Shown: positions 180-17,732, numbered from the stretch's first letter. The stretch: 34,622 nucleotides of DNA from Hyphomicrobiaceae bacterium (GCA_043719045.1 JAYSUN010000433.1:1-34622), one strand, 5' to 3'. Notes: generated by a model not told the origin, from the letters alone. Numbers and translations are program-made.

Positions 180-237
180 CTGCAGAACGCGCAGGCCTCA
201 TCTTGCAAATATGTGCTGAGGCTTCAGTGACCTGAAG

Positions 238-792
238 TCACGGGCCATTGGCTTTTCCGCGTTGAATATTCGCCCCCAATTTCGCCAGAGACAGTGCCAG
301 CGGATCGTCGGTAGGCAGCTTGTTGGCAGCAGCAACGCGCGTGATTTCTTGAGGCGTTGGTGGAGTACGCAGCGGTGCCGTTTTGGGCCGCATGACAGGG
401 CCGTCGACGGGCATGAGATCGGTCACCGCCCGATAGCCGAAATAGGCGTTGATGCGAGCGATAATCGGTCCCTTCAAATACGGGATTTCATGCGCACGAC
501 CGCCCGCGACCCAGATTTCCAGAGTCGTCTTTTGGCCACGATGCAAGGGCTGGGAAGCCCGTTGTGTTTCGCGTTCGAGGCCAGGGGCTTTGGGCCAACG
601 AATGCGCCGTGGCGAGGTAAACGCTGAGAGCTGTGGCCCGACAATCGCGGGCCAATTCATAATGATTTCAGCCGTGTGCAGGCCATGCGCTTCACGAGCC
701 TTAGTCGTAGCCTTGGGCACGAAAGTTCCAACCGCGCGGAAACTCCACGTCGGATCTTTGCGAAAACCTGTCGCAGGCGGTGTGGGGCTCAT
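238..792 (-). CDS. DUF721 (DciA-like) domain protein
   Basis: The track ORF is 238..936. I trimmed it to the internal Met (MSPTPPATG..., ATG at 790-792) so that it no longer overlaps ispE. The segment ...AEIIMNWPAIVGPQLSAFTSPRRIRWP...TLEIWVAGGRAHEIPYLKGPIIARINAYFGYRAVTDL resembles alphaproteobacterial DUF721 proteins as I recall them. Confidence 0.55.
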   Translation of the reverse strand: MSPTPPATGFRKDPTWSFRAVGTFVPKATTKAREAHGLHTAEIIMNWPAIVGPQLSAFTSPRRIRWPKAPGLERETQRASQPLHRGQKTTLEIWVAGGRAHEIPYLKGPIIARINAYFGYRAVTDLMPVDGPVMRPKTAPLRTPPTPQEITRVAAANKLPTDDPLALSLAKLGANIQRGKANGP

Positions 793-838
793 GGGTGACA
801 GCTTAGCAGAACTGGATTGGGTAACGCGAGTGGCGCAT

Positions 839-1681: not shown

Positions 1682-1741
1682 TGTTGCTCCGTGCCCTCGA
1701 TCTGTTATCACCGCTCGAACCTGCTGTGAGCGAGATCCGCA

Positions 1742-3274
1742 ATGTCTGACGCCAATCTGTATAGCCTGCTCGACGCGAGCTTTGAACGTGCTGGCGACAA
1801 AGTTGCGATGGTGATCCCCGGTGGGTCGTCGATCACCTACCGTCAACTCCGATCAGCCTCGGCGCGCTTTGCCAATACGCTGGTTGCGCTCGGCGTCAAA
1901 CCCGGCGACCGCGTGATGATGCAGGCGGACAAGTCGATCACAGCGGTCGGCGTCTACTTGGCGACGCTACGCTGTGGCGCGATCTTCAACCCGCTGAATA
2001 CCGCCTATACTGCGACGGAGTTGGACTACTTCATTGCCGACGCCAAGCCGACCGTTTTGATTGTAGCAGCTTCAGCTCAATCCAAGGTCGCAGCACTCGC
2101 CTCGGCAAAATCGGTCGCACACATCGAGACCCTGGAGCCCGATGGCACTGGCTCAATTCTGGATCTCGCGTTCAAGCAAAGCGATACCCATCCGATTGTC
2201 CCGCGCGGTCCGAAAGATCTGGCGGCACTTCTTTACACTTCCGGCACCACCGGCCGCTCGAAGGGTGCCATGATCACGCATGAAAATCTCGTGTCCAATG
2301 CTCAGACATTGTCGTCGTATTGGGGGGTCTCATCCAACGATGTCCTGCTGCATGCCCTGCCGATTTTCCATGTCCACGGCTTGTTCGTGGCGCTGCACAC
2401 GGCCCTGCTGAATGGCGTGAGCATGCACTGGCTCGCCAAATTCGAGGTGGGGCCGGTGTTGAAACTATTGCCCGCCTCAACCGTGATGATGGGTGTGCCA
2501 ACGTTCTATACCCGCTTGTTGAGCGACGCCCGTTTTGGCAAGGACCACTGTCAGAATATGCGGCTGTTCATTGCGGGCTCGGCACCGTTGTTGGCCGAAA
2601 CCCATGTCGCATTTGAACAGCGCACCGGCCACAAAATTCTTGAACGCTACGGCATGACCGAAGCCGGTATGATCACCTCAAACCCCTACAAGGGCGGCGA
2701 ACGCCTTGCCGGCACAGTCGGCTATGCTTTGCCGGGTGTGCATGTCCGTGTGGCGACTCCCGAGGGTCAGGTTTTGCCGGTTGGTCACGTCGGTGTGCTC
2801 GAGGTCAAAGGCCCCAATATCTTCATCGGCTACTGGCAAAATCCTGAAAAGACCAAGGCAGACTTCCGCACCGACGGCTATTTCATCACCGGTGATCTGT
2901 CTCAAATAGCGCCCGACGGCCGCGTCACCATTGTCGGGCGGGCCAAGGATCTGATCATTTCAGGTGGCTTCAATGTTTATCCAAAGGAGATCGAAGAGGA
3001 GATCAACGCCCTTCCCGGCGTAGCAGAATCGGCCGTCATCGGCGTGCCGCATCCAGATTTTGGTGAGGCGGTGCTGGCAGTGATTGCCCCGGTCTCGGGT
3101 GCCACATCACCAAGTGAAGCTGTTGTCATCGCGACGCTCGCCGACCGGTTGGCAAAGTTCAAATTGCCCAAGCGAGTTTTTGTCATGGCCGACTTGCCTC
3201 GCAACGCCATGGGCAAAGTCCAGAAGGCCGAGTTGCGCAAAACCTACGGTGACTTGTTCCAGGGCAAAGTATGA
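1742..3274 (+). CDS. matB: Malonyl-CoA synthetase (AMP-forming acyl-CoA ligase, MatB type)
   Basis: Motifs LYTSGTTGRSKGAM, HALPIFHVHGLFVA, MGVPTFYTRLL, ERYGMTE, GYF.TGDL, GGFNVYPKEIE and the C-terminal PRNAMGKVQK are present. From memory it aligns end to end with Rhodopseudomonas palustris MatB. Confidence 0.85.
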   Translation: MSDANLYSLLDASFERAGDKVAMVIPGGSSITYRQLRSASARFANTLVALGVKPGDRVMMQADKSITAVGVYLATLRCGAIFNPLNTAYTATELDYFIADAKPTVLIVAASAQSKVAALASAKSVAHIETLEPDGTGSILDLAFKQSDTHPIVPRGPKDLAALLYTSGTTGRSKGAMITHENLVSNAQTLSSYWGVSSNDVLLHALPIFHVHGLFVALHTALLNGVSMHWLAKFEVGPVLKLLPASTVMMGVPTFYTRLLSDARFGKDHCQNMRLFIAGSAPLLAETHVAFEQRTGHKILERYGMTEAGMITSNPYKGGERLAGTVGYALPGVHVRVATPEGQVLPVGHVGVLEVKGPNIFIGYWQNPEKTKADFRTDGYFITGDLSQIAPDGRVTIVGRAKDLIISGGFNVYPKEIEEEINALPGVAESAVIGVPHPDFGEAVLAVIAPVSGATSPSEAVVIATLADRLAKFKLPKRVFVMADLPRNAMGKVQKAELRKTYGDLFQGKV

Positions 3275-3332
3275 GGCGACGATTGCCGCACCGTCTTGAA
3301 AAGTTGCCAGCAACATTCGCGCTGGCCGGCTC

Positions 3333-3362
3333 TCCCTCTCGACTGCGGTGAGCCGAGAGGGA
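3333..3362 (+). terminator. Candidate stem-loop downstream of matB (TCCCTCTCG / CGAGAGGGA, 12-nt loop)
   Basis: A 9-bp perfect stem pairs 3333-3341 with 3354-3362. Only a weak T tract (CATTTGC) follows, so termination activity is uncertain. Confidence 0.3.
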
Positions 3363-3384
3363 CATTTGCAAGCCACTGAAATAG

Positions 3385-3552
3385 CCGGTGTGCCGGGCGC
3401 GGCCGCTGCGGTTTGGCGCGCTTAAAGCGCACATGCCCGATATCTCAGCAAAAGTTTTGACCGACCGTTTGCGCCACCTCGAGAGGGCTCAACTGGTCAG
3501 CCGCGATTACCGGCCAACGATTCCGCCGGCCGTCATTTCGCCCCTAGCGTAG
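3385..3552 (+). pseudogene. HxlR-family winged-helix regulator remnant (truncated at both ends)
   Basis: My own translation of this frame gives ...ARPLRFWRALKAHMPDISAKVLTDRLRHLERAQLVSRDYRPTIPPAVISPLA*. This matches the HxlR core pattern (RF.EL...IP.IS.K.LT.RLR.LE..GLV.R..Y...PP.VEY.LT). An in-frame TAG sits at 3382-3384, and both the N-terminal third and the C-terminal tail are missing. Confidence 0.55.
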
Positions 3553-3578
3553 CTTCAGGCGCATGCTAGCTTAGGGCC

Positions 3579-3812
3579 ATGCCAGCACCGACACTTTTCG
3601 ATGTCATCGTCACGAAACTGAAGGCCGCCGTGCCGGACGTGCAGCGCGATGTCTTGCGGTTTATCGAAGCGATCGAGACCAAAGAGGCTTTGCAAGACGC
3701 GCGCTTTGAAGATTCGTTTGAGCCGTTTTTTGGCCTAACACAGGGGGCTTATGTGTTCGATGGCGATCCGGTCGATCTGCAGCGGAAGTTGCGGAGCACG
3801 AAAGACCAGTGA
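3579..3812 (+). CDS. Type II antitoxin, DUF2281-like, partner of the PIN toxin
   Basis: 77 aa. The N-terminus (...KLKAAVPDVQRDVLRFIEAIETKE) and the acidic C-terminus (FDGDPVDL) fit the DUF2281-style antitoxin pattern. Its TGA stop (3810-3812) overlaps the GTG start of the PIN gene at 3809. Confidence 0.6.
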   Translation: MPAPTLFDVIVTKLKAAVPDVQRDVLRFIEAIETKEALQDARFEDSFEPFFGLTQGAYVFDGDPVDLQRKLRSTKDQ

Positions 3813-4180
3813 GCGGTTTCGTTCTGGATACCAACATCATCATCGGTCTACTCGATGGCCGCGAGTCGGCGCGTCACGTCCTGGAACAGCAGCGCGCTCG
3901 TCCATCGAATTGCGGGGTCAGCCAAATCACCCGACTTGAGTTGCTGGGTTTTGCCGGATTGTCGGCCGGTGAGGACGGCAAGATTCGTGCGTTTTTGTCG
4001 ACCGTGACGATGTTGCGCTTGGATGACTTCGTCGAAGCACGCGTGATCGCCTTGCGACGCACGACGCGGCTGACGTTGCCAGATGCGATCGTGGTTGCAA
4101 CCGCACTGGTCAACGGGCGGACGCTTTTGACCCTGGATGCGTTGCTGGAGGCTGCATTCACTCTGGCGGCCCGCCGTTAG
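3809..4180 (+). CDS. vapC: PIN-domain ribonuclease toxin (VapC family)
   Basis: FVLDTNIIIGLL carries the first PIN acidic residue. The C-terminal LPDAIVVATALVNGRTLLTLD is also typical. Size is 123 aa, and a GTGA overlap couples it to the upstream small ORF. Confidence 0.8.
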   Translation: MSGFVLDTNIIIGLLDGRESARHVLEQQRARPSNCGVSQITRLELLGFAGLSAGEDGKIRAFLSTVTMLRLDDFVEARVIALRRTTRLTLPDAIVVATALVNGRTLLTLDALLEAAFTLAARR

Positions 4181-4293
4181 TCCATATCGCGATGGCGCCC
4201 AAAAGCCACAGCTTGGGAGCCAAAGTCGCTGGCTGGGCGCCGCAGCATCGGTTCGGGCTTGGCCAACACCGGCGATGCACCTACTATTACTTC

Positions 4294-4866
4294 ATGAAAT
4301 TATTGAGACATTTGGTCCAGGCGGGAACCGCCCTGGTCGGATTAGCGGCTTTGCCAGCCCAAGCTGTGGCCCAACCGCCCGAGCCCTTTGTCCGCGAAAT
4401 CAAACTTGGCATTTTGGCCCACGACGTCCCGGAGATCTGGAGCGGGTTCCGGCGAGAGCGCGGCATCGACATCAACGCCGAAGTCATCTTGTCGCCGTCG
4501 TTGGCATTTCTTGGCGGGCATTTCCGACCAGCTGTTGGCGGCTCACTGAACCTTCAAAACGGTGGTTTCGACCGTGGCACATCCAAGGTCTATGCCGATG
4601 TCCGCTGGATGTATGAGGCCAGCAATGGGTTGTTTATCGGGCTCGGCATCGGGGCTGCTTGGCACAACGGCTTGCTCGATCCCGTCGACCCCGCGCGCAA
4701 GGCGCTTGGCCGCCGCGTGCTGTTCCACTTCCCGTTGGAAATCGGGTACCGCTTGGACGCGCACAACAGCCTTTCGCTGTATTTTGACCACATCTCAAAC
4801 GCCTACACCAAACCGTCGAACGAGGGGCTCGACACCCTTGGCGTCCGCTACGGCTACAAATTCTGA
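4294..4866 (+). CDS. Acyloxyacyl hydrolase / lipid A 3-O-deacylase (PagL-like) outer-membrane protein
   Basis: Start reset to MKLLRHLVQAGTALVGLAALPAQAVA, a Sec signal peptide. The product is beta-barrel-like with a C-terminal aromatic residue (YGYKF). It has an HISNA motif resembling the PagL His-x-Ser catalytic pair. Confidence 0.6.
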   Translation: MKLLRHLVQAGTALVGLAALPAQAVAQPPEPFVREIKLGILAHDVPEIWSGFRRERGIDINAEVILSPSLAFLGGHFRPAVGGSLNLQNGGFDRGTSKVYADVRWMYEASNGLFIGLGIGAAWHNGLLDPVDPARKALGRRVLFHFPLEIGYRLDAHNSLSLYFDHISNAYTKPSNEGLDTLGVRYGYKF

Positions 4867-4971
4867 CGCGGCTCGTTTGCTTGTGGGCTTGACACACGCG
4901 TCGTGACGGCGTGGCCTCCGCCGCAAACCGGCTTGCGCCCGACAAGAAGTGCAAGTGCCAAGACCCGCGAC

Positions 4972-5799
4972 TTACTCAACCTTGCTCTTGGCTTTCTCGA
5001 TTCGTTCAACCACCCAGATCGAGATGAAGTAGAGGCCGACCGTGGGGGCCATCATAGCGAGCATCGAGAACGGGTCAGGCGGCGACAAGACGGCTGACGC
5101 TGCAGTGATGGCGACAATGGCGTAGCGCTTAAAATCTCTCAGGCCCTGCGACGTGACGATGCCGGCTTGCGCGAGGAGTGCCAGGACGACCGGTAACTGG
5201 AAAATGACGCCAAAACCGAGGATCAGCTGCATGATCAGCGACAAATACTCAGCGATGCGCGGCATCAGCTCGAAGGGTTTCTTGACATCGGCGCCTGCGG
5301 TGATCGAGCTGCCCAACGCAAACTTGATCAGCAATGGCATGACCACAAAATAGACCACCATCGCGCCGAGAATGAACAGAAGCCACGTCCACAACAGATA
5401 GGGACGAAACGCCTGTTTCTCGTTTTTGTAGAGGCCGGGGGCGACGAACTTATACAGCTGATAGGCGGTGATCGGGAACGAGAGGAACAAGGCCCCGAAC
5501 ATCGCCAGCTTGATATTGGTGAACAATTCCTCGAGCAGACCGGTTGCGATCATCACGATGTTGGGCGCGACATTGCGGAGCGGCCAGGTCAGTACGCCGT
5601 AGATCTGCGACGCGAACATGAAGCACAGGACGAACATCGCAAAGAAGGCATAACCCGAATAGATCAGCCGCTGACGCAGCTCGATCAGGTGCTCCATCAA
5701 TGGCGCTTTAGAGGCCTCAATCTCGTCATGCCCCTCAGGCTTGTCGGGCTTGATCGGCTCAAGCGGAGATGTGGGTTTGGTTGCGACCATATCCTGCAT
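4972..5799 (-). CDS. tatC: Twin-arginine translocase subunit TatC
   Basis: APLMEHLIELRQRLIYS is followed by a six-TM hydrophobic profile. The gene lies immediately downstream of tatB. Confidence 0.95.
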   Translation of the reverse strand: MQDMVATKPTSPLEPIKPDKPEGHDEIEASKAPLMEHLIELRQRLIYSGYAFFAMFVLCFMFASQIYGVLTWPLRNVAPNIVMIATGLLEELFTNIKLAMFGALFLSFPITAYQLYKFVAPGLYKNEKQAFRPYLLWTWLLFILGAMVVYFVVMPLLIKFALGSSITAGADVKKPFELMPRIAEYLSLIMQLILGFGVIFQLPVVLALLAQAGIVTSQGLRDFKRYAIVAITAASAVLSPPDPFSMLAMMAPTVGLYFISIWVVERIEKAKSKVE

Positions 5800-5802
5800 G
5801 AT

Positions 5803-6264
5803 CTACGCCCCGACTTTGACTGGAACGGCGGGGGCTGGGACGTTGGGTACAGGTGCGGCGGGTACAGGTGCTGCCGGCTCAGCCACCGCCGGCATCGATG
5901 ACGCTGGCTCCGCAACAGACGGCCCGAGGGCGTCAATCCGGCCGAACTCAGGTGGCGGGTTCTGCGCGAGCGAAGCTTCCAGTTCAGCGTTAGCGGTTGC
6001 GACCTCTTTTTCGACACTCATCTCAGCTTCGCGCATGGTTGTTGCCATGTCCTGGCCCATCGCCTCGACGTCCTTCTTGATGGAGTCGAGTTCACTTTCG
6101 CGCATGGCGTCATCGAATTGAGTGCGAAATTCAGCGGCCTGACGCCGGATCATGCCGACATACTTGCCAATCGTGCGGAGCAGCAACGGCAATTCCTTCG
6201 GTCCGACGACGATCAATGCGACGAGGCCGAGGATCAAGAGTTTCGATGACGCGAGGTCGAACAT
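5803..6264 (-). CDS. tatB: Twin-arginine translocase subunit TatB
   Basis: MFDLASSKLLILGLVALIVVGPKELP is the TatA/B-family N-terminal TM plus amphipathic helix. The tail is Pro/Ala-rich. Confidence 0.9.
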   Translation of the reverse strand: MFDLASSKLLILGLVALIVVGPKELPLLLRTIGKYVGMIRRQAAEFRTQFDDAMRESELDSIKKDVEAMGQDMATTMREAEMSVEKEVATANAELEASLAQNPPPEFGRIDALGPSVAEPASSMPAVAEPAAPVPAAPVPNVPAPAVPVKVGA

Positions 6265-6334
6265 CGTGCCGCTGACTGTCCTTGTGTTACAAAGTGATGG
6301 ATCGGCTCACGTTAAGTCTAATGGCAATGGCCAG

Positions 6335-6388
6335 AAACAACCAAGCGGGCCGAACGCTCTCGAATTGAACGCCGCCCGCTTGTTGTTT
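6335..6388. other. Bulged GC-rich hairpin in the tatA-tatB spacer (AAACAACCAAGCGGGC ... GCCCGCTTGTTGTTT)
   Basis: Arms 6335-6350 and 6374-6388 pair with one bulged C. A/T-rich runs flank both sides. It could attenuate tatA to tatB read-through on the minus strand. Confidence 0.35.
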
Positions 6389-6460
6389 TGTGCACGAATT
6401 GTGCCTGCGGGCTGTTGCTGCCTGCGTGCAATGGGTCGTGTGGCACTGCGCCGTTACACC

Positions 6461-6694
6461 TCAGACGCTGGTCGTCTGATTGGTCTTGGTTTCCATCGGC
6501 TTTACAGCCTGGGTATCAATTGTCTTGGGCGGCTCGGGTTTTTTCGCCGCGTCGTCATCGGCCATGCCCTTTTTGAAGCTCTTGATGCCATCGGCCACGT
6601 CGCCCATGATCGACGAAATTTTACCTTTGCCGCCGAACAGGAGCAGCGCCACGGCCAGAAAGATCAGCCAGTGCCATACGCTCAAGCTACCCAT
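6461..6694 (-). CDS. tatA: Twin-arginine translocase subunit TatA
   Basis: [44 protein letters not shown] is a canonical TatA. Start set at the second Met of the track ORF. Confidence 0.9.
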
Positions 6695-6810
6695 TTGAAT
6701 CCACTCCACTTTGCAGCCCGTGCCGCTTTTGTTTCCAAACCACTATCGCAGAAAGATGTGGCGGCTTCAAGCAAAGCCATGGCTGGATGCAAAATTCTCA
6801 TTTTGGACCC

Positions 6811-7136
6811 GTGTGGCGTCGCGCCTTGGTTGATCGGTGTTCCGGCTCGACTGGTCTCAACCAAGGCGCGATGACCGCCACACTCAGCCAATGATTTTGC
6901 TCGTGGCCCTCATGTCGCGCCAAAATTGAAAGAAGTCGCGGCCATTCAGCAATTTTGGCGCGACGGGCCACGAGTGTGGCGTCGCGCCTTGGTTGATCGG
7001 TGTTCCGGCTCGACTGGTATCAACCAAGGCGCGATGAACGCCACACTCAGCCAATGATTTGCTCGTGGCCCTATTGTCGCGCCAAAATTGAAAGACGTCG
7101 CGGCAATTCAGCAATTTTGGCGCGACGGGCCACGAG
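6811..7136. repeat. Tandem duplication (2 units of about 163 bp, nearly identical) of an intergenic element composed of two long imperfect hairpins
   Basis: Unit 1 is 6811-6973 and unit 2 is 6974-7136. They differ by only a few substitutions and a 1-nt indel. In unit 1, hairpin a is 6811-6883 (GTGTGGCG..GCGCCTTGGTTGA / TCAACCAAGGCGC..CGCCACAC). Hairpin b is 6900-6974 (CTCGTGGCCC..GTCGCGCCAAAATTG / CAATTTTGGCGCGAC..GGGCCACGAG). Confidence 0.9.
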
Positions 7137-7209
7137 TGGTCTGCATCGGCTTATTTCGCTCATGGGCGGTGCCCATGTCCAGCCGTCATTTGTGGACCGG
7201 TGCGAGAGT

Positions 7210-7287
7210 GCCAAGTGGACCTCCGAGGGCAAGTCCATCCGTACAATCGCGGCACTTCTAAATCGTGCCCGATTGTCAAAGTCGCGC
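7210..7287 (+). pseudogene. Possible scar of a recombinase/transposase-type helix-turn-helix
   Basis: The frame reads AKWTSEGKSIRTIAALLNRARLSKSR. This resembles the C-terminal HTH of serine recombinases and IS orfA proteins (..EGKSIR.IA.LL.VSRSTLYR). There is no catalytic domain and the surrounding ORF is junk-like. Confidence 0.25.
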
Positions 7288-7671
7288 GAAATGAGTCGAG
7301 ATACCGGCGATGACCAAGGCGTGGCTGGCAACAGTCTTGTCGAAGATCGGGTCTCTCGCCTGCGCGACTATCGCTACTGTTTTTTTGCAATTCTGGAGGC
7401 CGCCTTGCTCGCGCAGTGGGCGCCGTTGCCCGCATTGCCAGAGGTTGGTGCATGGCGGGCGAAGAACGGTGAAGCGCCAACCCGTCGGCGATCTTTTGTG
7501 TGGTATTCCAGACACATACAGGCCGAAATGGCTTCCAAAAAAGCAAACTGAGATTGAAAAAATCCTTCCACGATAGTCACTGTCAATCAGAAAAAAAGAC
7601 AATCCACAGAAATTAAATAAACGTCCCCATTGCCGAACGTGTTCACCGAAATTCAATTTCGGAGCGTTGAT

Positions 7672-8961
7672 ATGCGTCAGTTGTTCTCGTTGATTTCATG
7701 TGCGCTCATCACCGCCTCGATGGCCGGGTGTTCCGTGCTCAGTTCAGACCTGTTGGAATTCAAGCCCGATGGTGGCTGCCAAAGCGGTGCTGGAACCTAC
7801 TATCTGCCGAAGACGCATCTTGGCGTCAAAGTCGAGCGGCTGACGTACGCGAACACCGACATCCAGCACCAGATTACCATCAAGAAGTTGCGCGTGCCGG
7901 ATCGCTATTTCGGCTATTGTCTCGATTATCTATCGCGCTTGACCTCAGACGATATTGTCCACGTCAAGCGCTATTCCAACACGCAGCTTCTTGGTCTCGT
8001 CAGCACCGATGTGGTGGATCAATCGGGTGCGATTCTGCGGACCTTCGTTCGAGCGGTTCTCGGCGGGTTGGCTGGGCGAACGCGTGTGGCTGGCACGGCG
8101 CAAAAAGCGACGGTGTTTGAAGCGGACTATGACCCGTTCGACGTGGTGGCTTCGGCGCAAGTCAACGACGCATTGCGCAAGTTCGGCTTCTGCCTGATGT
8201 TCGAAGGTGACTTTGCCCGCGACGCGCGCAAGATCCAAAGTTATTGCAGCCATCCGACGGCTGCGCCCAAAGCCGTGCCGGAGCCGCCCTACCAGTTGGC
8301 GTATCGCGATCGTTTGTCTGCGGATCGAAAAACGTTGCCGGGTCTGTTCTATCGACCACGTGTGCCGTACAGCTACTATCTGTTCGTGCGCGATGTGCCT
8401 GAGGCGCACAATAGCCCATGGGCACTGCGCGAATCCGCCGTAGTGGACCTCGAGAACATTTCTCCGATCCTGGCCGTGCGTGTCGACCGCGCCTTCTTCG
8501 CGCAACGTAAAACGACGCTGGTGTTCGACGAGGGCGCCTTGAGGAATGTATGCATCTATAAATCCGCCGAACTGGAGGAGGTCGGCAAGGTCGCGCTCGA
8601 TATCGCCAAGAGCATCGTCGCGCTCCCAGCCCAGACGTTCCAGGTCAAGATCGATCAGGTCTCCGGCCAGGAGGCTCTGGCGCGCGCCGAGTTGGCGGCA
8701 TTGAAGGCGCAGCAGAGCTATGACAACGCATTGAACAAAGTCGCCGGCACGCAACCGAACGTTCTCTCGACTGTCAACGATCCTTTCATGGTCAAAACGG
8801 CTCCGCCGACAGCCGAGTCGTTGAAGCTCGAACGGCAGACCGCGGTGCAAGCCGGCGATCTGGCGGCCCTGTGGACGGCGGCCTGTCCCACGGTCTCAAC
8901 CGCCGCTCCGCTGTCTGCGACCAACGCGCCTGGCAATACCATCGGAGGGATCACTCAATGA
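7672..8961 (+). CDS. Lipoprotein of unknown family (paralog A)
   Basis: Start set at MRQLFSLISCALITASMAGC (lipobox MAG-C), with GGAG 7 nt upstream. It is clearly paralogous to the next gene, sharing GTYYL.K.HL.V.VER, YCLDY, DPF....NDALR..GFCL, SYC.HP, YRPRV and EN.SP..AV..DRAFFA.RKTT..FD.G.LR. I recognise no characterised domain. Confidence 0.8.
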   Translation: MRQLFSLISCALITASMAGCSVLSSDLLEFKPDGGCQSGAGTYYLPKTHLGVKVERLTYANTDIQHQITIKKLRVPDRYFGYCLDYLSRLTSDDIVHVKRYSNTQLLGLVSTDVVDQSGAILRTFVRAVLGGLAGRTRVAGTAQKATVFEADYDPFDVVASAQVNDALRKFGFCLMFEGDFARDARKIQSYCSHPTAAPKAVPEPPYQLAYRDRLSADRKTLPGLFYRPRVPYSYYLFVRDVPEAHNSPWALRESAVVDLENISPILAVRVDRAFFAQRKTTLVFDEGALRNVCIYKSAELEEVGKVALDIAKSIVALPAQTFQVKIDQVSGQEALARAELAALKAQQSYDNALNKVAGTQPNVLSTVNDPFMVKTAPPTAESLKLERQTAVQAGDLAALWTAACPTVSTAAPLSATNAPGNTIGGITQ

Positions 8962-10454
8962 TCGGCTCCACCACAACACCCAAGCGCGTCACCGCCGCAG
9001 CCGGCTGCATTGCCGCCGGCATCATCGTCGCTGCCTGCTCAATGGCTGAGTCTCTGCATATCAGTCCGATCGGCAATCACACCTGCGTCAGCCAGGGCGG
9101 CACGTATTACCTGTCCAAGTCCCACCTCAAGGTTATCGTTGAGCGCGTGGCCAGCGTGGCCGCCGACGGCAAGACGGCAGGGCCGGAGAGCTACTCGCTG
9201 ACTGGTGTCACGGCAGAAGCAAAGCCGGACCGCGCTCAGCTGTATTGCTTAGACTACAATAGCTCGCCGACCGCCAATGACACGCTGCTGATTTCGAAGA
9301 CGCCGGCCAACCTCTTGCAGACGATCACATCAAACGCCGACGATCGATCGGCCCAGATTGCTGAAGATCTCATCAAGGCCGTGTTTGTTTCAATATCGCA
9401 GAATCCCGGATTTGACCGGACACTCAGCACGCGCGCTGCACGGCGCCTGCCACCGACCGGCGTCAGTCACTTGAATCTGTCATTCGATCCATTCGAGGAT
9501 GCTCAAGTCGACGTCACCAACGATGCGTTGCGCCACACCGGCTTCTGTCTCAAGTTGGAGCGACCAGACTCCGGGCCGCGCGACATCAACAGCTATTGTG
9601 ACCATCCGTTGGGCCATGACGGCCGCGAGGCAAGTCTGCGCGAGACAGCCGAGACGCTCGGACGCTACGATCCGCCTGTGATCAACGGTCCGCTCGGCGC
9701 CAATCCGTCACGGGCACGCGGCGCGGATGGACCGATGAGCCGCGCCCCACGAGCCATGACCAAGGCCAATGCGCCGGTGTTGACACAGGGCATTCTCTAT
9801 CGCCCGCGCGTCGCGCATTCGCTATTGCTGTTCGTCAAGCGCGATCTCAAGGCTCGCGGTGGATGGGAATTGCGCAGCCGCGCCACCGTGCTGCTGGAGA
9901 ACGTGTCACCGACCATTGCAGTTGGCATTGATCGGGCATTCTTTGCCAAGCGCAAGACGACGATCACTTTCGATGACGGCGTGCTGCGCGATATCGAGAT
10001 CGAGAAAGGCAGCGAGTTGCTGGGCTTTGCCAATATCCCGCTTGTCATCGCTCAAAGCATAACGGCGTTGCCAGCGAATATCATTCAAGTCCGTCTCCAG
10101 GAGACCAATAACCGCGCCCGGTTGATCGATGCGCAGGAAAAGTTGCTGAAGTCCAAACGCGATCTGGCCGAATTGCAGGGCAAGATCACGCCGGCGACCG
10201 GCCCACTGACACGCAGTGGCAATCCGTTCAACTCCACACGATCCGCCGGCGATGTGGTCGAGGAGCGTATCGGGCAGGGCGGCAATGAAGGTGGTGACCA
10301 AGCTGGGTTTAGCGGTTGCGTCACGCAATGCACCAAACCCGGCGACAGAAGTGCTCAGGTCTGTCGCAACTTCTGCAGTTGCAAAGCCAGTTGCACTGCG
10401 CAAGCGAGCAATAACGATGCGTGCAATCTATACTGCACCCAGAGCGCCAATTGA
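8958..10454 (+). CDS. Lipoprotein of unknown family (paralog B) with a Cys-rich C-terminal tail
   Basis: Start set at MIGSTTTPKRVTAAAGCIAAGIIVAAC (lipobox VAA-C). The ATG at 8958-8960 overlaps the TGA of paralog A (ATGA), and GGAGGGA lies upstream. The conserved blocks are the same as in paralog A. The last 49 aa contain 9 Cys. Confidence 0.8.
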   Translation: MIGSTTTPKRVTAAAGCIAAGIIVAACSMAESLHISPIGNHTCVSQGGTYYLSKSHLKVIVERVASVAADGKTAGPESYSLTGVTAEAKPDRAQLYCLDYNSSPTANDTLLISKTPANLLQTITSNADDRSAQIAEDLIKAVFVSISQNPGFDRTLSTRAARRLPPTGVSHLNLSFDPFEDAQVDVTNDALRHTGFCLKLERPDSGPRDINSYCDHPLGHDGREASLRETAETLGRYDPPVINGPLGANPSRARGADGPMSRAPRAMTKANAPVLTQGILYRPRVAHSLLLFVKRDLKARGGWELRSRATVLLENVSPTIAVGIDRAFFAKRKTTITFDDGVLRDIEIEKGSELLGFANIPLVIAQSITALPANIIQVRLQETNNRARLIDAQEKLLKSKRDLAELQGKITPATGPLTRSGNPFNSTRSAGDVVEERIGQGGNEGGDQAGFSGCVTQCTKPGDRSAQVCRNFCSCKASCTAQASNNDACNLYCTQSAN

Positions 10455-10477: not shown

Positions 10478-11728
10478 ATGATGAGCTCCACGCCGCGCAA
10501 CTCGGTACATAAGCGCTACGCGATGTTACTCGCGGCTGTGGCCCATGTCGTGGCGCCGACGGCAATGGCGCAAAGTGACTTGCAGGGTGCTGCGCGCTTT
10601 CTGCCGAGCGGTGATGTCCAGCGCGCGATCGAGCGGCAACGCAGCTTTCTGACCAGTGTCGACCGCCTGAATACCCCGCGTGGCGATCGATCAAGCACGA
10701 CGATCCTCCGATCGGCACTATCGGAGGTTGCACCACTGACGGGGCCGGGCGGGCGAGATCTCGGATCGCCACGCGACGTGAGCAAAGTGGCTATTGCCCC
10801 GCAGATCCATGACGATAACCCGAGGGTTGCCAAAACCCTGCGCAGGTATCTGGAAGAGGCGCGCCTTGGAGTGCGCGTGCTCGGCGGTGCCCAGGCGCCG
10901 CACGGTGTGTTTCGCGAAACGGTGGCAATCCATCCACGCGGTGATCAGTCAAGCGTCTGCAGCGGCGTACTGATTGATCGCAATGCTGTGTTGACGGCTG
11001 CGCACTGTGTTTGTGACTTGAAGCTGAACAAGCCGGATACCGAAGCTTTCGTGCGGATCGGCGATGACGTCGCAGAAGCTGCAACGAGGGCTCTTCGCGT
11101 GCTGCCGGAGCGCACGCGCATGCGCGACGAGCGCTTTTGCCAGAAGGCTGGTGCCGCGGGTTTTGTGCCAGGCGTCGATATTGCCGTGGTGTTCTTTCGC
11201 GAAGATCGGGCGGCTGTTCGGGTGGACTTGGGCGGCCCCTACATTATTCCGCGCGAGCGCTGGACCGATGAAAACGGCGCGCTGCGCGTGTCAACAGCGC
11301 GTATCGCGGGCTCAGATGTTTACCTCAGTGCGAGCACAGTGGGGCTTATGGTGGTCGGCTTTGGTACCAACGATACCTCGACCGTGGCCGATCTCGGCCT
11401 CAAGATGTTTGCCGAAATCCCGATTGCATCGCAAATTTGCGGCTCTGCAGCAGCAGAGCAGCAAGCCGGGTGCGCACCGGGGCGCGAAGCGATTTTGATC
11501 GATTGGAAATACCACCAGCGTGACACCTGCAACGGCGACAGCGGCGGCCCGGCGTTTGTCGTCGACGGATCGCAGTATTATCTGGCAGCAATTACATCGC
11601 GATCCGTGACGAAAAGCGGCGGATGCGGGGCTGGCGGGATCTATAGCCTCGCGACGCCCGCGGTAGTTGATTGGTTGCGTTCGGTTGTCCGCGTTGATCC
11701 CATTGTCGTCCGACGCAGGGGGCAATAG
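10478..11728 (+). CDS. Secreted trypsin-like serine protease (S1 family) with a long N-terminal pro-region
   Basis: Signal peptide MLLAAVAHVVAPTAMAQ. All three catalytic-triad contexts are present: LTAAHC (His), DIAVVFF (Asp), CNGDSGGP (Ser). A VLGG motif preceded by Arg sits at residues 133-137. GGGAAGG RBS before ATG 10478. Confidence 0.85.
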   Translation: MMSSTPRNSVHKRYAMLLAAVAHVVAPTAMAQSDLQGAARFLPSGDVQRAIERQRSFLTSVDRLNTPRGDRSSTTILRSALSEVAPLTGPGGRDLGSPRDVSKVAIAPQIHDDNPRVAKTLRRYLEEARLGVRVLGGAQAPHGVFRETVAIHPRGDQSSVCSGVLIDRNAVLTAAHCVCDLKLNKPDTEAFVRIGDDVAEAATRALRVLPERTRMRDERFCQKAGAAGFVPGVDIAVVFFREDRAAVRVDLGGPYIIPRERWTDENGALRVSTARIAGSDVYLSASTVGLMVVGFGTNDTSTVADLGLKMFAEIPIASQICGSAAAEQQAGCAPGREAILIDWKYHQRDTCNGDSGGPAFVVDGSQYYLAAITSRSVTKSGGCGAGGIYSLATPAVVDWLRSVVRVDPIVVRRRGQ

Positions 11729-11767: not shown

Positions 11768-13690
11768 ATGCGGTTATTGCAAACCTGTACATTGTCATTG
11801 TTCGTTACGCTGCTCGCGGCCGGCAGTGCGGTGGCCGCCTGTCTATCACTTGAAGATCAGGCGTTCGGCTGCATGGCACCGGGATGCGCGCAAGCCAGTT
11901 ATCTCAAGAACGGCAAGAAAGCGACACATGTCGCACTGATCTTTGGCAACAATGTCTACCAGGGTGACAGTCCCTTTGTCCCGGCACTGAAACAAGCCGA
12001 AGTCGATGCGCGCGAAATGACGGCGCGTCTGGAGGGTCAAGGCTTCCTCGTGCGCTGCGTCTTGAACGCCAGCGCGTTCCAGGCCCGGCGCGAAGTGCAG
12101 GATCTGGCCGAGCATTTGAGCGAACTTCAGCTCGATCATGTTGCCGTGCCGCGCGAGGCCGCCGTGCCCGCGGTGATCTACTTCGCCGGTCATGGCATGC
12201 GCTACAAGGATGCCAACTACCTGTTGTTTTCCGGCGTGTTTCCACAGCTCCGGTACCGGCAAGAGCTGCTGCCCTTCGCCAACTCCGTGGATGATTTGTT
12301 GCATCCGTTGAAAAACTACTCCAAAGCTCACCCCTTTATTATTGTAGACGCCTGCCGTTCAATCATTCCGCTCCCGGATGACCCGAGCATGCCGATGGTG
12401 CGGGGCAACGTGCATAGCGCCAGCCGTACGGATTCCCTGGCTGGGTTCAATAGCGGTTACTACGTTGTCTATTCGACCAGTGAAAACAACGTCGCCTCAG
12501 ATGAGGGGCCGCGCTTCATGAACTACTTTGCCGACGAGTTCGACAGCTGGGGTCGAGATTTCTCGTCTATTGTCACGACGACGCAAACGCTGTTGGAACG
12601 GAACTCGCCGACAAAGCAAACGATCAATGCCTTCTTCAAAACACCACTCGCCGACGCTCAATGGCGATTCACGGACGATCGCGATTGCGACGGTATTCAG
12701 CACATGCTTGCGCATTTCCCTCTGGTCGCCTGCAATGGCAAGTCATCGCGCGAATGTCTGGAGAGATTCGAGCCCAAGCCATGGCAATGCCAAGTCTGGC
12801 GGTCTCAGCAATCCTCCATCACGGCGGCTGCGAGTTGCAGGGCGCGATTGGTTTCTGCGTTCGGCGCGAAGTTTTCAGCGAAGTGCGAGCCAAGCAACGT
12901 AGCTGGTGCCGATTTTCGCATCCAAGACGGCAATCGACAGGTCCGCCTTAGCGGCTTGACGAACCACGAGGTGACGAAAGTTGCGCTCGCCAGCGATCGC
13001 CTCGGCGATTTCGTTCGGCAATCTGAAGTCAAGGCCATGTCGAGGCGCAGTAATCCCGACAAAGCGCTGAACCGGGCAACAGAGTGGAACGATCTGTTGG
13101 TGCGGGTGCCTGCTGGCACCCCAGTGACGGTCCCGTCTCCGACAGCAAGCGGTACCGCGCGAATGGAGCGTGCGCCGGTTGTGATCGAACCCTCACTGTC
13201 GTGTGACACTCATGTCTGTGATCGCAAGGTGCTGTCTTACGAAGTTTTTGAACCAGCCATCGCCGGCATTCCTAGTCTGCCATCCTTGCGGGTCATCGAG
13301 GCTGCAGCCGCCCAGCCGCGCACGGCTGACGATATTGTCGTGTTGCGCTTTGAGGGGCGGGCTGTGACCGCGCGCGGGGAAGATCTTGCGGGACTGACGC
13401 AGATGGTCGGTCAATACGTGGCGATGTCTGGAACGCGGATTCGAGTGACGGGAGGATTCCCCGGGCCGGCTGGCACGACGGTTGAGGCGCAGAAAGACTA
13501 CGAGCGCGGCATCACGCGGGCCATTTCGCGGAGCTTGAAGATTGGCGACCAGATTGCGCTGATGGGATTGCCGAACAGCTTTGACGCCGCCAGCCGGTTG
13601 AGCGCGGGTGAATTCACTCTGGTTGAGCAACCGGCAACCGGTGTCGAACCTGTCTTTGTCGAATTCTATCGTCCTGCCGTCAAACCGTGA
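11768..13690 (+). CDS. Exported caspase-like (peptidase C14) protein with a C-terminal extension of about 340 aa of unknown function
   Basis: Signal/lipobox-like N-terminus LLAAGSAVAAC. Caspase p20 hallmarks are HVALIFGNNVY, the His context IYFAGHG and the Cys context IIVDACRS. The extension (12665-13687) has several Cys and no domain I can name. Confidence 0.8.
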   Translation: MRLLQTCTLSLFVTLLAAGSAVAACLSLEDQAFGCMAPGCAQASYLKNGKKATHVALIFGNNVYQGDSPFVPALKQAEVDAREMTARLEGQGFLVRCVLNASAFQARREVQDLAEHLSELQLDHVAVPREAAVPAVIYFAGHGMRYKDANYLLFSGVFPQLRYRQELLPFANSVDDLLHPLKNYSKAHPFIIVDACRSIIPLPDDPSMPMVRGNVHSASRTDSLAGFNSGYYVVYSTSENNVASDEGPRFMNYFADEFDSWGRDFSSIVTTTQTLLERNSPTKQTINAFFKTPLADAQWRFTDDRDCDGIQHMLAHFPLVACNGKSSRECLERFEPKPWQCQVWRSQQSSITAAASCRARLVSAFGAKFSAKCEPSNVAGADFRIQDGNRQVRLSGLTNHEVTKVALASDRLGDFVRQSEVKAMSRRSNPDKALNRATEWNDLLVRVPAGTPVTVPSPTASGTARMERAPVVIEPSLSCDTHVCDRKVLSYEVFEPAIAGIPSLPSLRVIEAAAAQPRTADDIVVLRFEGRAVTARGEDLAGLTQMVGQYVAMSGTRIRVTGGFPGPAGTTVEAQKDYERGITRAISRSLKIGDQIALMGLPNSFDAASRLSAGEFTLVEQPATGVEPVFVEFYRPAVKP

Positions 13691-13762: not shown

Positions 13763-15805
13763 ATGTCTAACCTCCATCACCTGCTTCGGCGCATTGGACG
13801 CGGCACCGCTGCGACGGTTGCGATGTTTGCCGTCATCAGTACCTGCGGTGCGACTTTTGCCTCGATGCCAGGTCAAGGGCCAAGCGAGCTCCTCGAAAGT
13901 GAGTATCTCTCGGCTTACGTTCAGGCCTACGGCAAGGATGCCAAGAAGGTGGCGCTGGTCATCGGCAATGGCCGGTACGCGCATCTGAGCCCGCTGCAGA
14001 ATTCGCCGAGGGACGCGCAACTCGTCACCAAGCAACTCAAGCTGCTGAATTTTGACGTTACGATGGTGGTTGACGCTGACGTCGCGCAAATGCGGCGCGC
14101 GCTGGTAGATTTTGCGCCCAAGTCTTCGGCGGCCGACGTGGCACTGTTTTTCTATGCCGGCCACGCGATCGAGGCGAACGGTCAGAATTTGATGTTCGGT
14201 ATTGATGCAAGACTTGAGGGTGGCAATGCTGACAACGCTGAGTCTCTGACGCAGATGGCCCTGTCGGCGCAGAGCTTGCTCAGCGTGCTCGAACAAAGCG
14301 CCCCGATCCGGATCGTGATTCTGGACGCCTGCCGGGACAACCCGCTGGAAGCCAACAAGACGCCTTCACCGCCGTCCGGCAGCGGTTCACGACAAACCAT
14401 GCCCGCGACCGCCAACGACCGCGGCGTCGTGCCGGTCAAGAAGGGCCTCGCCGCCATGCGCGGTCGGTCCGGTACGTACATCGCCTATGCGGCCGAGCCG
14501 GGCAAAGTCGCCCTCGACGGTCAGGGTGAAAACAGTCCGTTCTCGACGGCAATCGCCAAGCACTTGCCGAAAGTCGGATTGACCGTCGAGCAGATTTTCA
14601 ATGAGGTCCGCCGCGATGTTTACCTGTCGACCTCGGGCATGCAATTGCCGTGGTCGGAGTCAGCCCTGCTCGGCAGTCTGTTCCTCCAGGCGCCGCCTGT
14701 TGCAATCACCAACGTCTTACCGGCCGCATTGGTTCCGGCCGAGCAGCGCGCGCACGTCAAAGATGGCGAGCTTGCGAAACTGGTCGGCGATCAGACATTC
14801 CAGATCTCAGGCCAGTTGCGCGCCGAGGCACGGCTGAATGGCGACATCATTGCGTTCGCGAACGGTGCTGAAAGCGAAGACGTGCTGAGGCGTGGAGTGA
14901 ATTACATCACCATGGGCGATAAGACCGTACCAGCATGGTACGAGCGCAAGCAGCTTGTGTTGTTCCCTCGAGCCTACCAGAAAAGCTATGCTATCGTCGC
15001 GGCCGTTGGTCGTTACAAAGAACCGGCAAAGAGCCGCTTTGAAGATCTGCCATTCATGGTCGACCAAGCAAAGAAGTTGGCCGATGTTTTGGTCGATCTC
15101 GGCTTTCCTGCCGAGAACATCGTTCGTCTTTATGATGGCGACGTGACTTCTGGCCGCCTTGAACAGGAACTGCGGCGCTTTTGGCCCGGTGGTGATCGAA
15201 GCGATGCTGATCGACTGCTGTTCTATTTCGGCGGCCATGGTGGCGATGTTGATATTCCGAACTACATGACGTTTGCCAAAGACCAGAAATCGAAGCGCGG
15301 GCTGCTGATCACACACGACCACGATCCGGCGCGACCGCTGGCAACCAGCTTTCTCCTCGATGACATCATTCAACGGCATTTCGCTTTTCTGGCGCCGCGG
15401 CACGTATTGTTTCTGATCGATTCCTGCTCATCCGGTTTGGCCATGCCAAGGACTGCGGACGGCAGTGATACGGACCGCGAAACAATCCGCCGGTATCAGT
15501 TGCTGGCGCTGCTCGACAGTGAATTGAAAAGCCACGCGCGCAATATGCTGGTTGCAAGCTCCGGCGATGCCAAGGCACTATATCAGAATGGGGGGCTGTT
15601 CACCAAGAAGCTGCTCGAAGGCATCGAGACTCGCGCGGCTGACATCAATGGCGATGGGCTGATTCAGTTTGCCGAACTCGAGATCTTCGTCTCGAACCTC
15701 GTCAAGGTGGAATCCAAGGCACTCGGACTTGAGCAGAGCCCGTCGCCGTTTCGAGTGGGTTCGAATTTCGTGTTCGTCTTGCCACCGACCAAGCCTGCCC
15801 ACTGA
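13763..15805 (+). CDS. Exported protein with two tandem caspase-like (C14) domains
   Basis: Start at MSNLHHLLRRIGRGTAATVAMFAVISTCGATFA (signal peptide). Domain 1 (about 13946-14659) has VALVIGNGRY, FFYAGHA and IVILDACRDNP. Domain 2 (about 14981-15739) has YAIVAAVGRY, LFYFGGHG and FLIDSCSSG, plus the EF-hand-like loop DINGDGLIQFAEL. Confidence 0.8.
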   Translation: MSNLHHLLRRIGRGTAATVAMFAVISTCGATFASMPGQGPSELLESEYLSAYVQAYGKDAKKVALVIGNGRYAHLSPLQNSPRDAQLVTKQLKLLNFDVTMVVDADVAQMRRALVDFAPKSSAADVALFFYAGHAIEANGQNLMFGIDARLEGGNADNAESLTQMALSAQSLLSVLEQSAPIRIVILDACRDNPLEANKTPSPPSGSGSRQTMPATANDRGVVPVKKGLAAMRGRSGTYIAYAAEPGKVALDGQGENSPFSTAIAKHLPKVGLTVEQIFNEVRRDVYLSTSGMQLPWSESALLGSLFLQAPPVAITNVLPAALVPAEQRAHVKDGELAKLVGDQTFQISGQLRAEARLNGDIIAFANGAESEDVLRRGVNYITMGDKTVPAWYERKQLVLFPRAYQKSYAIVAAVGRYKEPAKSRFEDLPFMVDQAKKLADVLVDLGFPAENIVRLYDGDVTSGRLEQELRRFWPGGDRSDADRLLFYFGGHGGDVDIPNYMTFAKDQKSKRGLLITHDHDPARPLATSFLLDDIIQRHFAFLAPRHVLFLIDSCSSGLAMPRTADGSDTDRETIRRYQLLALLDSELKSHARNMLVASSGDAKALYQNGGLFTKKLLEGIETRAADINGDGLIQFAELEIFVSNLVKVESKALGLEQSPSPFRVGSNFVFVLPPTKPAH

Positions 15806-15859
15806 TGCATGTGCGTAGTCGATTGAGAACAGCCTGCAAGCCATCCGCACACACGGGAT

Positions 15860-15892
15860 CGTCCGGTCGCCGCTGCCGTCAGGCGCCGGACG
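15860..15892 (+). terminator. Candidate GC-rich stem-loop after the protease operon
   Basis: CGTCCGG-T-CGCC (15860-15871) pairs with GGCG-CCGGACG (15882-15892), with one bulge. TGTCTTGCTTGC follows. The T tract is poor, so it may be a weak or Rho-assisted terminator. Confidence 0.35.
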
Positions 15893-15960
15893 TGTCTTGC
15901 TTGCGCGTGCCGACATGCGCAACCGCCAGCCGGCCGGCACGCGGACAGCGGCGGGACGTG

Positions 15961-16194
15961 TCAGAACTGTTTCGGTTCGGGATGACTTCGATGTGGCGCG
16001 GCATAGGTGAAAGGTTCCGTCAGCCGCCATCGTAGGTCTGGCTTGGCGCGGTCGTCGTTCTTATGTCCCAACGAGAAGGCTTCATGTACTGCGCGGCAAA
16101 GAGGCGAACATCGTGACCACAGGTGAAACGTCGTCTTGCCGATATCGATGCCGATGACTGTGACCTCGACCTTCGATTTCTGTTGGGATGACAT
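15961..16194 (-). mobile_element. Degraded IS110-family transposase remnant (N-terminal fragment only)
   Basis: MSSQQKSKVEVTVIGIDIGKTTFHLW matches the conserved IS110/DEDD transposase N-terminus (V.GIDIGK..FH.). An AAGGAG RBS lies upstream. The reading frame then degenerates (..LGHKNDDRA.. may echo the KND..DA block), and most of the roughly 340-aa enzyme is absent. Confidence 0.5.
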
Positions 16195-16238
16195 CGTGTG
16201 CTCCTTCAGGCTTGATATCTCTCCCTGACCAGAGCGGA

Positions 16239-17717: not shown

Positions 17718-17732
17718 CGCGTCCTCCGGCCT

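Follow-up and report, generated by a model that had tools for sequence, protein, structure and literature searches.

Paired predicted lipoproteins encoded beside exported trypsin-like and caspase-like proteases in a Hyphomicrobiaceae bacterium and its relatives

The DNA considered in this work is a stretch of 34,622 nucleotides from a Hyphomicrobiaceae bacterium (GCA_043719045.1 JAYSUN010000433.1:1-34622), which was analysed at its full length and will be referred to as the window; coordinates given without a locus name are counted from its first nucleotide. Two adjacent genes of this window, which we will call A and B, encode predicted lipoproteins that are related to each other, and they are followed on the same strand by genes for proteases, so that the order at this locus is A, B, Trypsin, Peptidase_C14 and double Peptidase_C14. 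A and B are members of a large unannotated lipoprotein family that is tied to a cassette of exported trypsin-like, and often caspase-like, proteases. This cassette is not described in the literature that was searched, including papers on conflict systems with caspases and trypsins (PMC7159879, PMC10907252). The features of the two genes, all on the + strand, are as follows, an arrow marking a predicted processing point.

7661-7664, + strand: Shine-Dalgarno sequence GGAG, just 5' of the A start
7672-8961, + strand: gene A, from ATG at 7672 to TGA at 8961, A-type lipoprotein of 429 amino acids (aa), as judged from translation, BLASTP against B and an AlphaFold model
7672-7731, + strand: predicted A signal peptide with the lipobox MAG↓C20, from sequence
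8020-8091, + strand: A residues 117-140, predicted amphipathic helix and indel-rich disordered loop, from model confidence and alignment
8077-8079, + strand: codon of A R136, a candidate cleavage site in a near-invariant loop column
8569-8745, + strand: predicted long C-terminal helix of A, residues 300-358, from AlphaFold secondary structure and conservation
8944-8949, + strand: Shine-Dalgarno sequence GGAGGG of B, from sequence
8958-8961, + strand: ATGA overlap, in which the B start lies on the A stop, from sequence
8958-10454, + strand: gene B, with its ATG at 8958, B-type lipoprotein of 498 aa, from translation and BLASTP against A
8958-9038, + strand: predicted B signal peptide with the lipobox VAA↓C27, from sequence, C27 being aligned with A C20
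9432-9434, + strand: codon of B R159, the counterpart of A R136 (…GFDRTLST-R-AARR…) by alignment mapping
10317-10436, + strand: B-type-specific C-terminal module of B with eight cysteines, residues 454-493, of the pattern C-x3-C…C-x3-C-x-C-x3-C…C-x3-C, i.e., two twin-CX3C units

The N-termini of A and B share the same layout: each opens with a short n-region of positive charge, which leads into a hydrophobic core and then into the lipobox. An earlier reading of this DNA, made from the sequence only, had placed a lipobox at the start of both proteins, and the criterion that was used here (a lipobox of the form [LVI][ASTVI][GAS]C that follows a positively charged n-region and a hydrophobic h-region) assigns both of them to the lipoproteins. 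This character is shared by the family: nearly all of the 166 members that were inspected have a lipobox, and its Cys column is >90% conserved among 150 aligned homologues. The signal peptide is the sole transmembrane-like segment of A by hydropathy. Judged from these characters, A and B are putative lipoproteins of the Sec/signal peptidase II (SPII) type with a presumably lipidated Cys, and a Ser at the +2 position suggests their sorting to the outer membrane if the E. coli rule is applied. The translational coupling of the two genes, which the same reading had proposed, is seen in the four-nucleotide ATGA overlap at 8958-8961.

The paralogy of A and B, also suggested earlier, is confirmed by their pairwise alignment, in which BLASTP reports 32% identity over 407 columns (E = 4e-48), a similarity far beyond chance. 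All of the sequence blocks that had been described as common to the two proteins are present, viz. GTYYL.K.HL, YCLDY, DPF...NDALR..GFCL, SYC.HP, YRPRV and EN.SP...DRAFFA.RKTT..FD.G.LR. The four conserved cysteines that were pointed out at the same time (C36, C83, C174, and C192 in A, corresponding to C43, C97, C197, and C214 in B) are invariant in 150/150 aligned homologues, and in A numbering the complete set of invariant positions among these 150 members is C36, Y43, C83, D116, N165, C174, C192, W250, G288, and P319.

The remaining cysteines separate the family into two subtypes. The mature A protein contains six cysteines, of which C294 and C405 are additional to the shared four, whereas B is without C294 and ends instead in the tail with eight cysteines. 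Proteins of the A-type have a Cys at position 294 plus one tail Cys (rarely three), and those of the B-type have no C294 and contain 0, 2, 4, 6 or 8 tail cysteines. Among the 150 homologues the correlation between these two characters is perfect: where Cys294 is present (n=106) the number of tail cysteines is odd, and where it is absent (n=44) the number is even. Due to this parity every cysteine of the mature protein can be paired, and with the lipidated Cys excluded the count is even in 150/150 members. An even count fits what is expected for a fully disulfide-bonded extracytoplasmic protein, and the parity rule thereby supports the proposal that these proteins form disulfide bonds outside the cytoplasm. 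In A, C405 (codon 8884-8886) is probably bonded to C294, which would fasten the tail to the long helix at its base. The 8-Cys pattern of the B tail was also found in 16 homologues, the B protein of the locus L003 has this tail as well, and other B-type proteins have 4 or 6 tail cysteines; the twin-CX3C units are probably helical hairpins stapled by disulfide bonds. The identification of this tail as a trypsin inhibitor of the twin-CX3C alpha-hairpinin type was considered and rejected, its inter-helix loops being unconserved and often acidic.

The A-type gene precedes the B-type gene at all loci in which the two could be assigned to a type. The duplication that gave rise to them is therefore old, with both copies retained. 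A heteromer of A and B, which the coupling of the genes had earlier brought to mind, would fit this fixed order and the long C-terminal helices. Two loci (L015:488-4723 and L026:8706-12830) contain three tandem family members rather than two, one of which has an insertion of ~200 aa in its variable loop.

No known domain could be recognised in these proteins, in agreement with what had been reported from the sequence. Searches of Pfam, also with the threshold relaxed to E <= 10, and of NCBIfam, PADLOC, PHROGs and the PDB sequences gave no match to A or B; a profile of 150 family sequences retrieved nothing among the PDB sequences, and eight other diverse members as well as two Rhizobium orthologues had no match in Pfam. 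The structure of A was predicted twice with AlphaFold2, first with 26 sequences, giving a mean predicted local distance difference test score (pLDDT) of 68, and then with 150 sequences, giving a pLDDT of 77.7 and a predicted template modelling score (pTM) of 0.67. In the second model most blocks of 10 residues between positions 40 and 300 average a pLDDT of ~90 or higher. The predicted protein is mainly beta (strands 42-58, 64-86, 92-100, 106-116, 145-153, 231-239, 251-260, and 279-297), with long beta-hairpins, few short helices and the long helix 300-358. Foldseek searches of both A models against PDB, and of the first model against BFVD, gave no match at E <= 0.001, the best rows having E ~0.02 and a template modelling (TM) score of ~0.1; where we speak of no detectable known fold, the comparison is with solved structures and with the predicted structures of viral proteins. 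Weak rows for alpha-hemolysin and leukocidin were regarded as noise, and neither the sequence searches nor Foldseek produced a confident match to a housekeeping family. The sequence-only reading had also described a hydrophobic helix followed by a segment rich in Ala, Gln, and Lys. A helix is indeed predicted at this place (residues 300-358), beginning with the conserved amphipathic stretch IPLxVAxSVVALPANIIQV, which contains the invariant P319, and continuing as a coiled-coil-like Ala/Gln/Lys part; residues 318-329, which include P319, are of low confidence. Its hydropathy is too low for crossing a membrane, and a transmembrane helix in this part of A was therefore rejected.

A further part of A that bears on its possible function is the region of residues 117-140. 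A conserved helix with the consensus DQSxxIxRTLIRTVFxGISG spans residues 117-135 and is among the most amphipathic segments of A, and residues 119-140 have a pLDDT <50. This region ends in a loop that ranges in length from ~10 to ~200 residues, with insertions of 150-200 aa in some homologues. Within this loop one column, that of A R136, is flanked by insertion columns and is itself nearly invariant: it holds R in 138 and K in 5 of the 145 occupied positions, and the next residue is mostly S or A.

An exhaustive profile search for this family recovered 2,327 cluster representatives (at 50% identity) with E <= 1e-3, of which 366 were found at E <= 1e-30; a word-index search had returned 25 relatives only, and its repetition with an alignment added almost nothing. 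All of the named members are annotated as 'hypothetical protein', and all named sources belong to the Hyphomicrobiales (Hyphomicrobiaceae, Methyloligellaceae, Bradyrhizobium, Pseudolabrys, and Rhizobium), to which the family is mainly or only confined. Family genes are also present on two conjugative Rhizobium plasmids, pR132503 of R. leguminosarum WSM1325 and pRlX4 of R. johnstonii. No homologue of A or B was detected in phage genomes or in IMG/VR viral contigs, and an origin as spanins or from a phage was rejected, as these are lipoproteins of 430-500 aa without a transmembrane domain and with no phage or IMG/VR homologue and no PHROG match, whereas spanins of this kind combine a small o-spanin lipoprotein with an i-spanin of the inner membrane in the lysis cassette of a phage. 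A protein of 746 aa (P0092) that resembled a lipoprotein-trypsin fusion was likewise rejected as such; it results from a frameshift or read-through in the gene call, as its linker is Arg-rich and out of frame and is followed by a signal peptide inside the protein.

The proteases that follow A and B in the window are the following.

10478-11728, + strand: S1A trypsin-like protease, putative zymogen, with a Pfam Trypsin match (E 7e-17) and the signal peptide …AMA↓Q
11768-13690, + strand: caspase-like (Peptidase_C14) protein 1 of 640 aa, with a Pfam match (E 1e-17), a signal peptide and the dyad motifs YFAGHG and IVDACRS
13763-15805, + strand: caspase-like protein 2 of 680 aa, with tandem C14 domains (PF00656 in Pfam, E 5.5e-48, two stretches) and a signal peptide

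The trypsin-like protein of the window has a pro-region of ~100 aa ending in R133↓VLGG (R133 codon 10874-10876) and the triad His176/Asp234/Ser355. Its phmmer alignments to mature S1A proteases of the eukaryote type start at residue 134 (VLGG), and since they begin right after R133, the protein looks like a zymogen that is cut after an Arg. The first trypsin in 9/9 aligned loci has the His/Asp/Ser triad and the motif D[TS]CxGDSGGP, whose Asp, six positions N-terminal to the catalytic Ser, occupies the chymotrypsin-189 position. An Asp at this position is the trypsin-type determinant of Arg/Lys specificity in S1A proteases, and the first trypsin should therefore be Arg/Lys-specific; that of the window has in addition the sequence characters of an S1A zymogen. 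The second trypsin of two loci (L013 and L017) is without Asp189 and, as called, has no signal peptide, the predicted gene beginning at the mature N-terminus.

In caspase-like protein 2 a His/Cys dyad is present in each C14 domain, and the motifs GHG/GHA and DAC/DSC are found across the window caspases. Among solved structures the human MALT1 paracaspase is the nearest to caspase-like protein 2, whose second domain resembles the NCBIfam model 'caspase, EACC1-associated type' with 92 bits, which is below the cut-off of 140. Metacaspases, orthocaspases, and paracaspases (the Arg-specific MALT1 among them) cleave after Arg or Lys, and by analogy the window caspases are expected to cut after these residues. 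Residues 300-640 of caspase-like protein 1 (~340 aa; 12665-13690) have no match in Pfam, and by BLAST this part is not conserved among the orthologous caspases from other loci, so that it may serve as a recognition domain of variable sequence. Signal peptides were detected in the window trypsin, both window caspases, all of the other caspases and first trypsins that were checked, and in the Cys-rich proteins encoded upstream of A at other loci (see below).

As A and B are encoded beside a protease of predicted Arg/Lys specificity, the simplest reading of the basic residue that is conserved in their flexible and length-variable loop is that of a P1 cleavage site. Of the roles that had been put forward earlier for A and B, viz. 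substrates, scaffolds or effectors of the adjacent proteases, the loop Arg thus favours that of substrate or effector, and we suggest, with confidence that falls somewhat short of an even chance, that A and B are protease-gated targets in the envelope, belonging to a periplasmic proteolytic cascade. The same Arg could instead serve a different purpose if A and B were membrane-tethered inhibitors or immunity proteins, whose loop traps the cell's own exported proteases, these being the real effectors. Serpins, alpha-2-macroglobulins, and canonical inhibitors typically present bait or reactive loops with an Arg at P1, and an exposed loop with a conserved P1-like Arg, co-transcription with a protease, which suggests a fixed stoichiometry, and the presence of two lipoproteins beside at least two proteases in many loci would all be in accordance with inhibition. 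However, a loop that varies from ~10 to ~200 residues misfits a reactive loop that is rigid or exactly sized, no structural similarity to serpins, macroglobulins, ecotin or inhibitors of the Inh type was observed, the hairpin loops of the B tail are neither conserved nor basic, and 430-500 aa is large for an inhibitor. In view of these observations this explanation seems distinctly unlikely.

Another explanation places the emphasis on the lipid anchor and the association with the proteases rather than on the loop. If the A-B complex were an adaptor or scaffold, it would tether the exported proteases to the outer membrane and activate or direct them while itself remaining uncut. Lipoprotein adaptors of periplasmic proteases (NlpI-Prc and LbcA-CtpA) are an established paradigm and thus a precedent; the pair is strictly co-encoded with a trypsin-like protease of the same compartment, and the long C-terminal helices are possible docking surfaces. 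Nevertheless, A and B are without a tetratricopeptide repeat (TPR; none even at E <= 10) or other known adaptor domain, and such a role leaves unexplained both the near-invariant Arg in a disordered, indel-rich loop and the trypsin-type P1 specificity of the protease. We consider an adaptor unlikely on these grounds, and protease-gated targets remain the reading that we favour.

The earlier suggestion of a link between A and B and the adjacent proteases is strongly supported by their association, which holds well beyond the window. Gene context was examined in a sample of ~20 loci among >2,000 clusters, by a tblastn census of the fetched loci together with contigs that were listed without their DNA; the scans of genome contigs and metagenomes used narrow back-translated patterns and returned few loci. 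Family genes are in tandem in ~20 independent loci, ranging from metagenomes to the Rhizobium plasmids, and the order of A-type, B-type, and trypsin-like genes is kept in them. A trypsin-like gene directly follows the family genes in 14/15 loci with enough downstream DNA, a caspase-like gene is found within 10 kb (<=10 kb) in 9 of about 17 loci, and a gene for a secreted Cys-rich protein is located upstream in 10 loci. The arrangements that were observed outside the window are given below.

L001, L002, and L003: Cys-rich secreted protein, A, B, Trypsin, and caspases either alongside or at a distance of a few kb
Rhizobium plasmids: Cys-rich protein, A, B, S1 peptidase, caspase, second serine protease, the genes overlapping or abutting
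L016: Cys-rich protein, A, B, Trypsin, C14
L013 and L017: transmembrane/coiled-coil protein, Cys-rich protein, A, B, Trypsin, Trypsin
Two contigs without DNA: A, B, Trypsin, C14

On pR132503 of WSM1325 (RLEG_RS30150-30175, the lipoprotein genes being RLEG_RS30155/30160) the genes overlap or nearly abut from the upstream gene through the S1 peptidase. The Cys-rich gene lies directly upstream of A, and its secreted product has a C-terminal domain of ~100 aa with the motif CDATxY..RxC…C…CG[YF]xP[SA]PQ…YxC…C and no match in Pfam. Genes of this kind are located at L001:8769-9956, L002:8628-9905, L003:8832-9992, L008:8922-9854, L010:8159-8935, L013:7797-8600, L016:9215-9988, L017:9125-9916, and L018:1175-1741. 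The protein may be the sensor of the cassette. A SUEL- or rhamnose-lectin-like nature of its domain was considered, but has no support from Pfam and is not claimed here.

Several observations concern individual loci. In L013 (6661-7716) and L017 (7885-9000) the operon opens with a conserved protein of 351-371 aa, a possible transmembrane partner in signalling, in which membrane-spanning segments in the centre are combined with a coiled coil at the C-terminus. Immediately 5' of the L003 cassette (2881-6306) are a caspase-WD40 protein of 1,141 aa and a caspase of 782 aa, both with a signal peptide; an exported protein of the caspase-WD40 architecture is unusual. In the window itself, a gap of ~1.4 kb (6265-7671) separates tatB/tatC from A. 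It has a GC content of 0.54-0.56 as compared with ~0.60 and contains no convincing gene; its open reading frames (ORFs) seem spurious, although one at 7000-7551 has a sub-threshold match to HTH_38, and tblastn found no remnant of a Cys-rich gene in it. A PagL-like lipid A deacylase is encoded a few kb 5' of the cassette both in the window (4192-4866) and in L008 (5531-6715), with 51% identity over 168 aa, which probably reflects shared synteny of related genomes and not a part of the system.

The wider surroundings of the cassette differ between loci. In L017 it lies within a typical defence island, its flanks (1-7212 and 15613-21449) containing TIR_2, nSTAND1-WD40, a further TIR_2, AAA_23, a methyltransferase of the N6/N4 type, and patatin. 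BrxL/PglZ and Cas2 are found beside it on the P0023 contig, a recombinase with PIN/MazE at one locus, and HipA at L016, and insertion sequences (IS) or conjugative backbones occur at further loci, among them the conjugative Rhizobium plasmids with IS66. These data bear on a third possibility, that A and B are structural or surface lipoproteins, such as adhesins or proteins that stabilise the envelope, which the proteases only mature or turn over and in which there is no switch. The invariant residues Y43, W250, D116, and N165 could form a site for binding glycan or peptidoglycan, and the window copy is situated amid housekeeping envelope genes. A structural role is nonetheless difficult to reconcile with the patchy distribution and the plasmid-borne copies, with defence or mobile-element neighbours at several loci, and with proteases that include a dedicated enzyme of the zymogen type, and it appears very unlikely. 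As the family is patchy, plasmid-borne, and often located beside defence or mobile genes, a role of the module in conflict or stress is more likely than one in housekeeping.

Taken together, the best reading of the data is that A and B are a non-redundant, lipid-anchored pair that forms one module with the co-transcribed exported proteases, presumably as their gated targets in the envelope. If so, A and B would be exported via Sec, lipidated and disulfide-bonded, and would be located on the periplasmic face of the membrane, probably as a heteromer. A trigger, detected perhaps through the C-terminal half of the caspase, which is variable, or at other loci through the secreted Cys-rich protein, would activate the cascade, and the caspase and/or autocatalysis would cut the trypsin zymogen after R133 (R↓VLGG). 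The active trypsin would then cleave A at R136 and B at R159. By this cleavage the N-terminal beta-hairpin portion of ~115 aa, which bears the lipid anchor, would be detached from the C-terminal ~290 aa and the amphipathic helix would be released, and the cleaved A and B would switch on an envelope-directed activity. The cassette might further constitute a hitherto unrecognised extracytoplasmic immune or abortive system of alphaproteobacteria, in which invasion of or damage to the envelope by a phage, predator or competitor sets off the caspase-trypsin cascade, often with the secreted Cys-rich protein as sensor, and the lipoproteins, cut at the conserved Arg, act as executioners that permeabilise or remodel the envelope; this last proposal we regard as doubtful at present.

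A number of observations weigh against a protease-gated switch of this kind. The loop Arg could be a structural or ligand-binding residue instead, and Foldseek searches of PDB and BFVD revealed no fold of a pore-former, toxin or enzyme for A. The window copy lies amid the housekeeping genes tatC, PagL, MlrC, and a peptide ABC transporter, and it is without the upstream Cys-rich gene that is present in 10 other loci. Recognisable defence neighbours were seen in only a minority of the sampled loci, the sample being small. Lastly, the caspase is not universal, as some loci (L013 and L017) carry a second trypsin instead.

To our knowledge, bacterial caspase-like and trypsin-like proteases have so far been known as parts of cytoplasmic conflict systems (gasdermin, CBASS-like, and STAND-associated). 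The caspases and first trypsins that were checked here carry export signals and are linked to an unnamed lipoprotein family of at least 2,300 clusters at 50% identity, and this export sets the cassette apart from the known cytoplasmic systems. If the proposed cascade is correct, regulated proteolytic cascades of the type found in animal innate immunity would have a place in the periplasm of bacteria too, the lipoproteins would represent a new family of effectors or sensors, and a function would become available for hundreds of 'hypothetical' genes in Rhizobium, Bradyrhizobium, and their relatives. If the immune proposal also held, the cassette would represent a periplasmic counterpart of the caspase-gasdermin axis and of the clotting and Toll cascades of animals. 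The presence of a full cassette on a plasmid of R. leguminosarum WSM1325, which is cultured and genetically tractable, makes these proposals directly testable, and the family merits a database entry and a solved structure even if its output should prove to be as mundane as the anchoring of proteases.

The relationship of the cassette to known systems can be assessed from the characters that they share. As would be the case for A and B, NlpI of E. coli (with Prc) and LbcA of Pseudomonas (with CtpA) are outer-membrane lipoproteins that work with a periplasmic protease in the same compartment. However, these are TPR proteins whose partners are C-terminal processing peptidases of family S41, whereas no TPR is present here and the proteases belong to S1A and C14; NlpI and Prc, in addition, are a housekeeping system and not an operon pair. 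The bait- or reactive-loop inhibitors, such as serpins, the alpha-2-macroglobulin lipoproteins YfhM/ECAM, and ecotin, have in common with the predicted A and B a periplasmic, lipid-anchored protein with an exposed basic residue in a flexible loop, and A is in addition beta-rich and, as a serpin, of ~400 aa. They differ from A and B in that the loop of the latter is highly variable in length and no sequence or structural similarity was found between them: Foldseek gave no match to serpin, ecotin or bacterial alpha-2-macroglobulin, and entries for complement C5 and C3 (E ~0.1-0.3) were noise.

Greater similarity is seen to the operons of bacterial gasdermins (bGSDM), in which an effector-like protein is likewise encoded next to proteases of the caspase and trypsin families and is associated with defence islands; a lipid-modified N-terminal Cys (predicted for A and B) and a flexible segment as the predicted point of cleavage are also common to both. 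In contrast to the cytoplasmic bGSDM systems, the A/B cassette is exported via Sec/SPII signals, it contains two paralogs of 430-500 aa and not a single protein of ~250 aa, and the candidate cut in A is internal (R136) instead of releasing a short C-terminal inhibitory peptide. No gasdermin domain was detected in A or B by Pfam or PADLOC, and in Foldseek searches of PDB, whose library has a release cut-off of April 2026 and is later than the published bGSDM structures, the best row had E 0.024 and a TM score <0.1.

The extracellular clip-domain serine protease cascades of animals, which terminate in Spätzle, coagulogen or prophenoloxidase, also employ an S1A protease with a pro-region and an activation site of the type Arg↓(I/V)(I/V/L)GG. 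As in these cascades, several proteases are encoded together, the terminal substrates are disulfide-rich, and the upstream Cys-rich protein is a possible sensor. The likeness is one of logic only, since the cassette has a caspase-family protease and no clip domains, and its terminal proteins are lipoproteins with no detectable known fold. Of the systems compared, the gasdermin-protease operons of bacteria and the extracellular zymogen cascades of animals are the nearest functional analogues of the cassette.

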